A stretch of 64,000 bases of DNA from Gammaproteobacteria bacterium (GTDB lineage Bacteria; Pseudomonadota; Gammaproteobacteria; CAJXQU01): NCBI GenBank assembly GCA_965238175.1, contig CBDEGZ010000003.1, forward strand, positions 1,088,001 through 1,152,000. Direction: 5' to 3'. The position numbers and the translations under genes were made by a program. The notes beneath the pieces were generated by a model. That model was given only the letters and a program-made list of their open reading frames with translations, did not search any database and was not told the origin of the DNA. Shown one piece after another: positions 185 through 4,151 of the stretch; positions within the stretch are counted from its first letter, which is position 1; each line of letters opens with the position of its first letter.

Positions 185-723
185 CAGTAATGGTGTGTAA
201 TTTTATTAGATGTAAATTGGGGAAGATGGTGGAATTGTGGTTTCGAAAATGCCCAGCTAATCAGTTTAACTTCTGACAAACTATCACTTATTAACTCTTC
301 TAATGAGGTAGTTCTAAATCTCGTTCTTCAAAGTTTATCAAGACTCAACGTCGATCAAAAATTTATAAACTACGCTTATTCAATTCCAGCAGGAGATTAT
401 GCTCTTAGTGCTATTAGTATAAAGTAACTAAATCTGTTAGTAATGTCGGCTTCTTTACAGTGCAACGTGACAAGCTGTTTAAAGCAGGTAAACCAACTGG
501 TGGGACTTTTAGTGTTCATCAAGGAGAAACTGTCTTTTTAGGTAACTTTTACCTGGATTGTACTTATGGTCCAATGCTTTGGCGGTATTATCCTGAGAGC
601 CGTGGGGCATTTGAAAAGTAAGTCACTGAATACCAAACTGCTTTTCCATATCTAGATCTCAAGAATGTTAAATTTAGATTATTCAAAACTAAAAAAATCG
701 GAAATGACTATAATCTGAAGTAG
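185..723 (+). pseudogene. Degraded hypothetical-protein cassette ORF
   Basis: Protein-like segments (VILLDVNWGRWWNCGFENAQLISLT ... GNFYLDCTYGPMLWRYYPE ... GNDYNLK*) are broken by stops and frameshifts and end just before the attC-like site. Confidence 0.5.
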
Positions 724-729
724 CTCAAG

Positions 730-807
730 TGATAACAATTAACTCAAGTATTATTCCGGCCAAAAACGGCCTCCACTGGACGCGCACCACTTAGCAAGGC
801 ATTAGAG
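730..807 (+). other. Integron attC-like recombination site (degenerate)
   Basis: TAAC-AATTAA-CTCAAG ... CTTAG-CAAGGC-ATTAG has the R''/L''/L'/R' spacing of Vibrio-type attC sites, with the extrahelical base in CTCAAG versus CTTAG. The R' GTT is mutated to ATT. The next ATG is at 814. Confidence 0.65.
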
Positions 808-950
808 GTATAAATGAGCAAAAAGCATATCAAGCTTGCAGGATGGCGAGAGATTATAAGTAACCTGATGTGATGGTCTCCTCCCCCTAACGGCATCTAG
901 GTGCCATGATTGAACTGACATACACACAATCAAAAGAGGAGAAGACCAAA

Positions 951-1964
951 ATGAAGACTACAACAATCGGGTTAGACATAGCAAAAAACGTATTTCATGC
1001 TGTCTGCTGTAATCAACAAGGGCGTATAATCAAAAAGAAAATGTTAAAGCGAGCGCAGGTACTCTCCTTTTTTCAATCTCAACCTCCTTGTTTAGTCGCA
1101 ATAGAATCTTGTGCAACGTCACAGTATTGGGCCCGAGCGATACAACAACAGGGACATCAGGTGAAATTACTACCACCTCAGCATGTTAACGCATTTCTAA
1201 TCGGCAATAAGAATGATTATAACGATGCCTTGGCCATCGCCGTTGCTGCGAAACAACCTCATTTAAAAAGTGTGGGCATTAAATCAGTTGAGCAACAAGA
1301 CAACCAGGCACAACATAAAGCAAGAGACTTAGCGGTCAGACAAAGAACCGCATTATGTAACCAAATGAGAGCGCTTGTTGCAGAATATGGCATTAGCCTT
1401 CGTCCCGGCCTAAATACCCTACGTCAATCTATCCCGTTGCTATTAAGTGATGAGAACGAACGGTTGTCCGTTACTTTCAAAAGGATACTGCGCCAGCTAA
1501 AGGAACAATGGCAATCACTTGATGCCTGTATTGCGACATTTGACCAATTGATCATTCAATCGGCAAAAAACAATGCGATTTGCCAACGCTTACAAACTAT
1601 TCCAGGGTTTGGGCCGATGGTCTCGAGCGCGTATTTTAATGAAGTGGGAAACGGCGCTCATTATCACAAAGGGCGCGATGTGTCCGCCTCATTAGGACTT
1701 GTTCCACGACAGTACAGTAGTGGTGGTAAAGAGGTGCTACTGGGGATCAGTAAACGCGGCAATAAATACCTTCGTTGTTTGTTAATTCTAGGCGCGAAGG
1801 CCGTGGTATCAAGAGCCAAAACGAAAGGCGATAAACTGAGTCAATGGATTAATCGTTTAGTTGAGACGCGGGGGCATAATCGAGCGTGTGTGGCGTATGC
1901 CAACAAAATGGCAAGAATGGCCTGGGCTATAACGGTTTCTGGTGATGACTACTCACCGGCCTAA
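951..1964 (+). CDS. IS110-family DEDD transposase/recombinase
   Basis: IGLDIAK, AIESC and KNDYNDA (DEDD RuvC-like) motifs, TIPGFG, and GLVPRQYSSGGK with the catalytic Ser. RBS GAGGAG precedes the ATG at 951. Confidence 0.95.
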   Translation: MKTTTIGLDIAKNVFHAVCCNQQGRIIKKKMLKRAQVLSFFQSQPPCLVAIESCATSQYWARAIQQQGHQVKLLPPQHVNAFLIGNKNDYNDALAIAVAAKQPHLKSVGIKSVEQQDNQAQHKARDLAVRQRTALCNQMRALVAEYGISLRPGLNTLRQSIPLLLSDENERLSVTFKRILRQLKEQWQSLDACIATFDQLIIQSAKNNAICQRLQTIPGFGPMVSSAYFNEVGNGAHYHKGRDVSASLGLVPRQYSSGGKEVLLGISKRGNKYLRCLLILGAKAVVSRAKTKGDKLSQWINRLVETRGHNRACVAYANKMARMAWAITVSGDDYSPA

Positions 1965-1984
1965 ATAGAGAGAACAAATCATTT

Positions 1985-2165
1985 CAACGAATTGCGAAGG
2001 TAAAACTAAAGATGGCATAACAGGTCAAACCAGCCTATTGAAAACCTGTCGAGCTCAGGGGTAACTAATACCGATAACCTGATAAGGAAAATAGGCGCGT
2101 AATACATCCAGGTCAGAAGTTGAAAACTTCATTGAAGGCCGTATATATGACAGCAATCCTGTCCC
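1985..2165 (+). ncRNA. Putative seekRNA/bridge RNA of the IS1111 element (ends approximate)
   Basis: The 3' non-coding region has the IS1111-like scaffold (GATGGC..ACAGGTC..CC ... GGTCAGAAGTT-AACTTC..GGCCGTATATATGACAGCAA) and segments matching the target and the donor junction. Confidence 0.75.
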
Positions 2166-2299
2166 TGTTATCTGAATGTTTTATCTTGCAATACGGGAGG
2201 AGACCATATATGAACTCGGGATAAGAAAATGAACCAAAGGCCCATTCTCCGATCAGATCAATTGCTACCAAACAGTTGAGAAAAAAGGAGAACAAGCCA

Positions 2300-3238
2300 A
2301 TGTATAAATTAGTTGAAATCTTTTGTGATGTCGATGATAAGGTGAATGCCGAAGGCAGAGAGAATACCCTGGGGTATTTTTGTCAACACTTCATGCCGTT
2401 GTGGGAACAACAATTATTGACCGATGGCAAACGTCAACGTCGTCGAGTTGGACGAATGCAGGCCAGCGAAATCATAACAATTATTATTCTGTTTCATCAC
2501 TCCAACCATCGTGACTTCAAGAACTATTACAAAGGTTTTGTGGCTCAATTCTATGCAAAGGACTTTCCCGAGATACTAAGCTACACGCGCTTTCTAGAGG
2601 TAATGCCGACGGTGCTTGTTCCTTTATGCAGCTACTTTTCTTATCTCAAAGGTAAACCCACTGGCGTTGCGTTTATCGATTCAACCGCCTTAAAAGTGTG
2701 CCACAATCTGCGTATTCCACGCCATCGTGTTTTCAAAGATATTGCTCAACGAGGTCGAGGCACCATGGGCTGGTTTTATGGCTTCAAATTGCACCTCATC
2801 ACCAATCACCAGGGGGATATTCTAGCCGCTAAAATCACACCTGGAAATGTCGATGACCGTCAGCCTGTTCCTGAACTCTGTGAAGCGATGAATGGCAAAC
2901 TATACGAGGATAAAGGCTATATCAGCCAAGCCTTATCGAGCGAATTGTTTGATAAAGGCGTTGAGTTGGTGACCAATGTCCGGAAAAACATGAAAGCAAG
3001 AGTCCTTTCATTATGGGACAGAGCCATGTTGAGTCGGCGTTTTATTATTGAAACGATCAATGACCAGTTGAAGAACATATCGCAAATAGAACATTCCAGA
3101 CACCGCTCTGTACATGGCTTTATGCTCAATCTCATCAGTGGATTAATTGCTTATTGTCTGAAAGATAATAAGCCTTCTTTGAATTTATCAGGGGATGATT
3201 TTGATTGTTTGAAACAGGCGTTGGTACCTATGGCTTAA
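2300..3238 (+). CDS. IS982-family DDE transposase carrying a 13-aa in-frame insertion
   Basis: FIDST, GWFYGFKLHL, DKGY and IETINDQLK motifs. RBS AGGAG precedes the ATG at 2300. Confidence 0.9.
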   Translation: MYKLVEIFCDVDDKVNAEGRENTLGYFCQHFMPLWEQQLLTDGKRQRRRVGRMQASEIITIIILFHHSNHRDFKNYYKGFVAQFYAKDFPEILSYTRFLEVMPTVLVPLCSYFSYLKGKPTGVAFIDSTALKVCHNLRIPRHRVFKDIAQRGRGTMGWFYGFKLHLITNHQGDILAAKITPGNVDDRQPVPELCEAMNGKLYEDKGYISQALSSELFDKGVELVTNVRKNMKARVLSLWDRAMLSRRFIIETINDQLKNISQIEHSRHRSVHGFMLNLISGLIAYCLKDNKPSLNLSGDDFDCLKQALVPMA

Positions 3239-3289
3239 ACCGATCTGGGGTTATTTACACCTTAATATCTGATTTTATTAGCTATTTCG

Positions 3290-4151
3290 TGGGGATTGGT
3301 CAGTGTCAGTACCTATTATTATCAATGCCGACAGAAACCGATTAATCATGAAGAACGTATCATGATGAAATCAATCAAAACCATTGCTGTTGAGACAAAC
3401 TACTCATACGGTAAATGACGCATGCATGCGTCGCTATTGAATACAGGTTTTTCTGTTGGTGCCTATATCGAGCTGCCACGTTGATGAAAAAAGCAAACGT
3501 TTTTGCCATTACGCCTCGAAAAAGACATTATTGTCCAAGTACTGGCAAACCTCATATCAAAGCAGAAAATATTCTTGAACGTCAATTTTATCCGAAAACA
3601 ATCAACACTCACCGGGTGGGTGATATTACTTATGTTCGCACACATCAGGGTTGGAGTTATCTCGCTTGTGTTCTAGATTTAGGCTCAAAAGAAATTGTGG
3701 GTTGGGTAATGTCTAAACACCCCAATGCGACCTTAGCAAAGGAAGCATTAAACCATGCCATTCGAAGATAACAGCCTGACACGAGCAATTACTTTTTCAT
3801 TCAGATCAGAGGGTGCAGTATTCTGCCAATGTGTTTGTTGATTATCTTAACCAATTAAATATCACTCAAAGCATGAGTCGAAGGGGAAATTGTCTTGAGA
3901 GCTTGCCTCACGAAGTGTTTTGGGGATAATGCCGTCACTGAGCGATTCTTCCGTAGTTTGAAATCAGAGCGAGTGAACTGTCGTTGTTATCAAACGAGAA
4001 GTCAGGGAATAGCCGATATCATTGATTATATCGAACCGTTTTATAATTAAGAACGACGACATTATAAACTAGGAAATATTTCATCTGTTGAATATGAACA
4101 GGAATTACTAAAAAGTGCCTAATAGATCTCCAAGGTTAGTTAACCATTACA
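3290..4151 (+). pseudogene. IS3-family transposase OrfB remnant with right end
   Basis: GDITYVRT..GWSYLACVLDL, HSD, SMSRRGNC..DNA..ERFFRSLKSE motifs are broken by stops and frameshifts. The right end ...GTTAGTTAACCATTACA finishes in CA at 4151. Confidence 0.88.

Follow-up and report, generated by a model that had tools for sequence, protein, structure and literature searches.

An IS1111-group insertion sequence, probably guided by RNA, in the terminal repeats of IS982-type elements on a gammaproteobacterial chromosome

The targeting of other mobile elements by insertion sequences (ISs) of the IS1111 group is already known, with recorded targets that include the ends of Tn21-family transposons, IS1384, attC sites, repetitive extragenic palindromes (REPs) and QMITE2, a family of transposable elements of the miniature inverted-repeat kind (MITEs). 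IS1383, itself a member of the IS1111 group, reportedly integrates into the inverted repeats of IS1384 in Pseudomonas putida H, according to work by Muller, Lauf and Herrmann from 2001; it resembles the case described here in being an IS110-family element specific for the inverted repeat of another IS, and differs in the family of the host IS and in the bacteria concerned. The present case lies in a stretch of 64,000 nucleotides (the window; positions 1,088,001 to 1,152,000 of contig CBDEGZ010000003.1 in the gammaproteobacterial assembly GCA_965238175.1), in which positions 866-2210 form a 1345-bp IS1111-group (IS110-family) element set into the terminal repeat of an IS982-family IS. We consider it very probable that this element is an active or recently active IS that is guided by RNA into IS982-type tips. 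Window features are on the forward strand unless stated otherwise.

Further comparisons come from three papers, PMC11187229, PMC11208160 and PMC5896051, on which we draw throughout. IS4321 and IS5075 likewise are IS1111-family elements with subterminal repeats that occupy one position, in one orientation, inside a transposon terminal repeat, but their target is the 38-bp repeat of the Tn3 family (Tn21-family ends) on resistance plasmids, whereas here it is the 19-bp IS982 repeat, together with MITEs, on a chromosome (PMC11187229). The founding member of the family also sits in a MITE family: for IS1111 in Coxiella burnetii, 20 insertions in QMITE2 are described, with the missing MITE bases found across the IS, but the QMITE2 target is a GTAG-type REP inside the MITE, in contrast to a terminal repeat inherited from an autonomous IS (PMC5896051). 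Matches to both the top and the bottom strand of the target, such as we predict below, are made likewise by the seekRNAs of ISEc11, ISPa11, ISKpn4 and ISPst6 (PMC11187229) and by the bridge RNA of IS621 (PMC11208160), and the IS1111-group seekRNA lies downstream of the transposase gene, as here (PMC11187229). The targets of those RNAs are a short chromosomal site, REPs and attC, and the RNA of the present element, unlike theirs, is a prediction.

The anatomy of 866-2210 is that by which Siddiquee et al. split the IS1111 family from IS110 proper, namely subterminal inverted repeats of about 11-13 bp that are perfect or nearly so, asymmetric extensions, the left one of 7 (or 6) bp and the right one of 3 bp, a longer non-coding stretch after the gene than before it, and a transposase of 330-350 amino acids (aa) with a GL-P----S(t)G motif (PMC11187229). 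The bounds of the element, set by comparing the flanks of all its copies with uninterrupted sites, enclose a 7-bp left terminal extension TGATGTG (866-872), whose first TG(A) is the overlap, or core, repeated at 2211-2213; a left subterminal inverted repeat ATGGTCTCCTCCC (873-885); a right subterminal inverted repeat GGGAGGAGACCAT (2195-2207) that is its perfect complement, pairing at 13/13 bp; and a 3-bp right terminal extension ATA (2208-2210), which is shared by 56 of the 58 relatives whose ends were mapped. The gene at 951-1964 encodes a DEDD transposase, or bridge recombinase, of 337 aa, in which the motif reads GLVPRQYSSG. This protein matches NCBIfam NF033542 (E 2.9e-90, 302.9 bits against a cut-off of 140) as well as Pfam PF01548 (E 3.2e-16) and PF02371 (E 6e-20), the DEDD N-terminal and C-terminal domains, and its relatives align starting at residue 1, with 49-58% identity to most of those found and 68-78% to a marine subclade. 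The element has 246 bp of non-coding DNA downstream of the gene (1965-2210) compared with 85 bp upstream (866-950). Every IS1111-group feature that we tested on the DNA or protein was present, and the group identity proposed in a first-pass annotation, made from the sequence alone, is borne out by the DEDD domains, the 13-bp repeats, the 7/3-bp extensions and the downstream non-coding region. A collection of plasmids yielded distant matches in 54 records, none of which covers 80% of the element; the best are 70.7% identical over 1154-1345 and lie on enterobacterial plasmids.

IS982-family elements are about 1 kb in length and have terminal inverted repeats and a short flanking duplication. The host IS982 in the window (862-3252) measures 1046 bp after removal of the insert, has repeats that agree at 13/19 positions, and shows no flanking duplication on this copy. 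Its left inverted repeat is split, the left junction reading AAGTAACC (858-865) ^ TGATGTGATGGTCTCC and the right junction GGAGACCATATA (to 2210) ^ TGAACTCGGGATAAG (2211-2225), where ^ marks the boundary of the insert and TGA stands at both junctions (866-868 and 2211-2213). Excision of 866-2210 joins AAGTAACC to TGAACTCGGGATAAG, and the rejoined 19-mer AACCTGAACTCGGGATAAG is identical at 13/19 positions to the reverse complement of 3234-3252 (AACCCCAGATCGGTTTAAG); the TGA at both junctions, the rejoined IS982 left end and the inverted match are thus as the first-pass annotation had them. The outer 4 bp of this repeat (AACC, 862-865) constitute the left target half, as seen in 24/24 left flanks that end in AACC, and the first A may instead belong to the flanking duplication of the host; the inner 15 bp (2211-2225) constitute the right target half, as defined by a logo of 24 sites and by the 13/19 match. 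On the reverse strand, the right inverted repeat of the IS982 (3234-3252; AACCCCAGATCGGTTTAAG read inward) has AACC without a following TG and is unoccupied. The IS982-family transposase is encoded by an intact frame of 312 aa at 2300-3238 (NF033520, E 8.1e-81, 271 bits against a cut-off of 130; PF13612, E 1.5e-77), a length equal to that in an uninterrupted copy at 96% identity elsewhere in the genome. With its outer 3-4 bp moved 1.3 kb off, the interrupted end is expected to be disabled, while the transposase gene remains intact. A 13-aa insertion, KVNAEGRENTLGY, near the N-terminus of the IS982 transposase (2339-2377) is found in the window copy and in the 96% copy and is absent from the relatives at 83% identity.

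The genome (3.35 Mb in 3 contigs, 40.4% G+C) contains 24 full copies of the element, 22 of them identical and 2 at 99.9%, and one additional copy cut by a contig start. AACC precedes and TGA follows every one of the 24 full copies, with T at -5 in 23 of them, an agreement well beyond what chance would give, and all are oriented alike with respect to the site; apart from the TG(A) overlap nothing is repeated at the two junctions, and there is no target duplication. The right flanks have the consensus TGAACTCGGGATAAG, to which 14-22 of the 24 copies conform at each position from +4 to +15. By a fixed criterion of at most 3 mismatches in 15 to either of two local repeat variants, 16 of the 24 right flanks are IS982-repeat-like. 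One copy is hosted by the window's own IS982, two by the other end (the right inverted repeat, IRR) of the 83% IS982 relative, and at least six by MITEs of ~210 bp with IS982-type ends; in three copies the right flank consists of a repeat stub followed by a 1226-bp IS481-type IS, in three it consists of five bases followed by that same IS, and the remaining right flanks are singletons. The proposal that the element targets IS982 ends is supported by the 16 repeat-like flanks and by the two copies in the IRR of the 83% relative. As to hosts, the first-pass annotation was right about IS982-type ends and needs one correction: only 3/24 copies lie in full IS982 elements, and most targets are MITEs and solo ends. 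We count the identity of 22 of the 24 copies, combined with our failure to find the full-length element in five of six same-genus genomes searched, in favor of recent activity.

The IS481-type IS that adjoins several of these copies encodes an rve transposase of 344 aa and is present in 57 full copies with 7-bp duplications. It lies exactly 5 bp past the element's right end in three copies, and in the contig-end copy the duplication TATGAAC across that junction is intact (G000, contig C3, 946621-947851, 1051572-1052808, 2867335-2868565 and 3332140-3332875); the right junction of the element looks like an insertion hot spot for this IS. One element copy (C3, 589238-590582) is itself inside an IS481-type IS at TTAACC^TGACAGTCGG, a site that is expected in most of the 57 full copies and was seen occupied only there. 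At C3 1050196-1054153, a 37-bp MITE stub and one IS481-type IS lie between two element copies in inverted orientation; the two junction types found there recur elsewhere with different outer flanks and one IS481 pair has swapped duplications (CATAAGT), which points to rearrangement between IS copies. Short palindromes of two inverted element left ends, flanked by AACC...GGTT, occur at C3 1393274-1393339 and 1154716-1154810, the centre of the former coinciding with a small hairpin in the element's left end, and these palindromes may be what is left of MITEs that had the element in each end. The main contig C3 starts within an element copy (1-1321) and ends within an IS481-type copy (3332140-3332875), and these contig ends do not join, so that ~0.5 kb of repeat is missing at closure; the small contig C1 carries ftsH and is therefore chromosomal and not a plasmid. 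In the window, IS3-family transposase fragments (rve and rve_2, in different frames) directly follow the right end of the IS982 at 3415-4050.

A bridge RNA or seekRNA with two internal loops closed by conserved stems is predicted at 1991-2192, on the basis of an RNAalifold consensus over nine sequences, the element and eight relatives at 68-78% protein identity. The alignment is 85% identical, its variable blocks are the two target guides, and the consensus comprises 47 pairs, 6 of which show compensatory changes; the consensus fold sets each target guide on one side of a hairpin-capped internal loop. The first variable block holds the 5' target guide CGAGCTCA (2050-2057), which is complementary to top-strand TGAGCTCG, so that 7/8 positions of the site TGAACTCG are matched, and the equivalents of this guide in the relatives match the right flank. 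The second variable block holds the 3' target guide TAACCTGA (2075-2082), an exact 8-mer that reads in the sense of the left target half together with the overlap. The top-strand match thereby comes 5' of its bottom-strand counterpart, each of them taking in the TGA overlap, the arrangement that is described for IS1111-family seekRNAs, in which the two matches overlap in the target (PMC11187229). The second loop has the same form and its two guides match the element's own ends: a putative donor guide ACATC on the 5' strand (2104-2108, invariant in 9/9) is complementary to GATGT of the left end TGATGTG, and a donor guide ATATATGA (2143-2150, invariant in 9/9) has the same sense as the right end plus the TGA overlap, giving an 8-mer match to the junction of the abutted ends. 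On this predicted fold the second, invariant loop is the donor loop of the bridge-RNA model (PMC11208160). A candidate -35 box TTGCAA (2186-2191, TTGC invariant in 9/9) would give TTGCAA-17 nt-TATGAT if the ends were abutted in a circle, and junction promoters are described for the IS1111 family (PMC11187229); a linear promoter scan of 800-2350, to which a junction promoter is invisible, found nothing at the ends and 2 sites compared with 2.9 expected. The RNA guidance that had been put forward for this element thus agrees with both fold and sequence, in that a guide RNA is predicted and both of its target guides match the site.

To relate guides to flanks across the family we mapped element ends by their subterminal repeats, which succeeded for 58 of 78 loci, the other 20 being without an 11-bp inverted repeat or enough flank; L051 and L107, with incomplete matches, were left out. 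Both guides match their own flanks at 7/8 positions or better in 33 of the 58 relatives, compared with a mean of 2.0 and a maximum of 6 in 200 shuffles of the pairings, and the matches lie at a constant distance from the element end. The right flank opens with the same two bases as the element in 38 of the 58. In sister elements, changes in the two guide blocks alone have shifted the target. With the guides AACCTCA and GATCTGA, the Halioglobus sister L043 occupies the site GATC^TGAGGTT, and L047 and L048 have the guide TATACCCA and a site before TGGGTATA; the right junction of these last two reads TGG against a left end of TGA, implying that only TG need be shared.

Within the genome, occupancy follows guide match. 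Once the 24 copies are deleted in silico, AACCTGA occurs at 853 chromosomal sites, and the occupied proportion falls with the match to the right guide, from 10 of 17 sites at 7/8 through 7 of 60 at 6/8 and 5 of 162 at 5/8 to 2 of 613 at 4/8 or fewer, with 0 of 1 site occupied at 8/8. Several observations weigh against guided insertion into IS982-type tips. The sole 8/8 site is empty even though an occupied one stands 21 bp away from it in a small palindrome, the commonest target mismatches the guide at +4 (A in 19/24 sites, where the guide expects G), and the sites counted are non-independent, many of them being copies of one MITE family. Five of the 24 copies are without a clear IS982 repeat at the site (one inside the IS481-type IS, two in unrelated sequence, one at a degenerate site and one in a mini-palindrome of two repeat tips), and three further right flanks are interrupted after 5 bp by the IS481-type insertion. 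A search of window positions 700-3400 against Rfam at a permissive threshold matched no family, and the assembled contigs of four runs contained no joint across 866-2210, no circle junction and no excision product.

Occupied and empty ends of the IS982 elements differ in sequence: the window's IS982 has AACCTGA at its occupied left end and AACCCCA at its empty right end, the 83% relative has AACCCCA at its empty left end and AACCTGA at the right end that is occupied in both copies, and the 96% copy has AACTCCA and AACCTCA at its two empty ends. That the element occupies the same end in each of the two copies of the 83% relative, which are 100% identical over 1004 bp and lie at two loci, raises the alternative of a hitch-hiking composite: the IS982 transposase would still act on the interrupted end, the new outer junction of which retains AACCTGA, and both elements would move as a unit. 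Each of these two composites is flanked by its own duplication (AACTT, AGTT), and at the left junction AACC^TGATGTG the repeat's first 7 bases are preserved. The same picture would nevertheless arise if IS982 had inserted twice and each copy had then received a targeted insertion, given that 10 of the 17 sites with a 7/8 match are occupied. Moreover, 1.3 kb now separates the tip of the repeat from its inner 15 bp, and it is the inner part of the terminal repeat that DDE transposases usually bind; nor does the genome contain a composite copy of the window's own IS982. Joint movement of this kind is in our judgement improbable, and insertion of the IS1111-group element on its own, into ends already in place, is the reading that we retain.

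A second alternative leaves the element's independent insertion intact and removes the RNA from it: the protein itself would recognize the IS982 repeat, and the guide-like segments would be coincidental or serve only as a scaffold. Conservation in the target logo does exceed the guides, extending up to +15 (ATAAG at +11 to +15 in 15-19 of the 24 sites), but conservation to +15 is expected anyway among related MITE and IS982 ends, and the off-target copies share just TAACC^TGA and partial guide matches. The covariation of guides with flanks over the 58 relatives, the retargeting of sisters via the guide blocks alone and the RNA requirement shown experimentally for four other IS1111-family members (PMC11187229) all favor RNA guidance, and recognition by protein alone appears very improbable.

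The order of events is given by the flanks of the hosts. In five cases in this genome the host MITE or IS982, together with its split end, is bordered by duplications of 4-5 bp (AAGT, AACT, ATTT, AGTT, AACTT), and host duplications are also present in two other genera (ACAT at L069, AAAT at L049). As these duplications enclose the host together with its split end, the insertion lies 3-4 bp inside the host tip, and the host element preceded the insertion. If the terminal A/T is counted with the duplication, the repeats read TAnnTA and the host ends ACC...GGT, which accounts for the T at -9/-5 and the A at -8/-4 of the target logo. We also searched this genome and six same-genus genomes for the rejoined 19-mer with at most 1 mismatch, using the reversed pattern as control. 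Uninterrupted sites numbered 8 in this genome, 38 in G003, 2 in G002 and 3 in G006, those in G003 being mostly inverted pairs ~190-210 bp apart, and the reversed pattern had no match in any of the seven genomes. MITE ends that are uninterrupted in genomes where the element was not found imply that the MITE family is independent of the element. The expectation of the first-pass annotation that an intact relative of the IS982 would begin with the rejoined sequence failed for the 96% copy, which starts AACTCCAACTCGGTTTAAG, and held for the MITEs, at whose ends the exact sequence stands uninterrupted. Among Logan assemblies, a contig of run X1 collapses the repeat to 862-2213 at a depth of 139 compared with 7-19 in the flanks, run X6 yielded one diverged contig of 1393 bases, and run X5 had no match. 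Reverse causality or a mis-set boundary, by which AACC and the right flank would be part of the element or IS982 and the MITEs would land beside it, has in its favor that every copy has AACC and TGA, so that an assembler merges 862-2213 into one repeat, but it is hardly credible given the uninterrupted AACCTGAACTCGGGATAAG at MITE ends both here and in genomes that yielded no copy of the element, right flanks that run into at least five different host sequences, and host duplications that enclose the split end.

The same target is occupied in other genera. In Pseudoalteromonas (L069) a relative lies in one end of a 1016-bp IS982, with an adjoining transposase gene that matches NF033520 (E 1.9e-79) and a partner repeat 993 bp away; the relative's own transposase has an internal TAA stop. 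In Paraglaciecola algarum (L049) the relative lies in one end of a 242-bp MITE, and in the same-genus genome G003 a relative with an 84% identical non-coding region lies directly against a MITE end, on its inner side, and the guide of this relative, CCGAATTCA, is perfect for the flank TGAATTCGG. Homologous copies at these three loci therefore rebuild the same kind of end, a full IS982 in the first and MITEs in the other two, as would be anticipated from the earlier proposal. The Colwellia relative (L044) sits before TGAGATCGGTTTAAG with a guide match of 8/8 and no partner repeat within 1.4 kb, and that of Shewanella frigidimarina (L045) occupies a degenerate site, AACC^TGAACTTGAG. The close relative (68-77% aa identity) is single-copy in five named genomes, so that in each of them site specificity is judged from one insertion. 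Among more distant relatives (50-58%) CG or TG overlaps predominate, and 11 of the 58 follow a GTAGG-type, REP-like sequence. The 77%-identical Halioglobus sister, in which both target guides are changed, lies at 2380-3950 of L043, on the chromosome of a metagenome-assembled genome, about 44 bp inside a GTAAGCG-type end region beside an IS66-family transposase (NF033517, E 1.8e-69), and this may be another IS-end target.

For successful integration under the mechanism that we favor, a DEDD bridge recombinase would be guided by RNA from the 246-bp region downstream of its gene. Within one loop, CGAGCTCA would pair with the top strand of TGA(A/G)CTCG and TAACCTGA with the bottom strand of TAACC+TGA, and the two invariant guides of the second loop would act on the abutted ends of the element itself. 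Anatomy, site specificity, the agreement of guides with target, its covariation in relatives and the use of one target in several genera are observations of the present analysis, whereas production of the RNA and its binding by the transposase are suggested by analogy with experiments on the family (PMC11187229, PMC11208160). The site thus specified, TAACC^TGA(A/G)(C/A)TCGG, is the tip of IS982-family inverted repeats, so that integration falls 3-4 bp inside the ends of IS982, of its ~210-bp MITE derivatives and of solo ends, in one orientation relative to the repeat, without duplication, and presumably with strand exchange at the shared TG(A). The element would presumably leave as a circle whose abutted ends create the candidate promoter, TTGCAA-17 nt-TATGAT, upstream of the gene.

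The earlier statement that no IS1111 element targeting IS982 ends was known stands for IS982 itself and falls for IS-end targeting of a comparable kind, for which IS1383 and IS1384 provide a precedent. Our literature search found no IS1111-type element tied to IS982 ends, and ISfinder or the logos of ~300 ISs in PMC11187229 may already list one. IS982 and its MITEs are added here to the mobile elements that are colonised by IS1111-type elements, and no new mechanism is involved. Natural retargeting through guide changes is likewise on record, for ISEc11 and ISXne4 (PMC11187229). In the present clade, tips of IS982 or of MITEs are occupied in at least four genera, and the 77% sister lies in an IS66-family terminal region; the guide and repeat variants comprise TGAGCTCG, TGAGATCG, TGAACTCG, TGAATTCG and TGAACTCT, and the present guide, which differs by one mismatch from either local repeat variant, thereby reaches both. 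A broader proposal, for which we have a low but not negligible expectation, is that this marine gammaproteobacterial IS1111-group clade consists of specialised transposable-element parasites whose guides are retuned between repeat variants, and whose insertion immobilises the host IS or travels along with it.

The locus is a well-supported and tidy natural example that will not surprise a specialist. The 24 insertions of one element, with their occupancy gradient, the empty sites and the drifted guides, make up a natural data set on bridge RNA and seekRNA targeting that is useful for mismatch tolerance and overlap length in the IS1111 group. The finding raises the question of whether insertion silences the host IS, and, if the broader proposal were true, insertion would represent either a natural restraint of one IS by another or a means of composite travel with the host IS.

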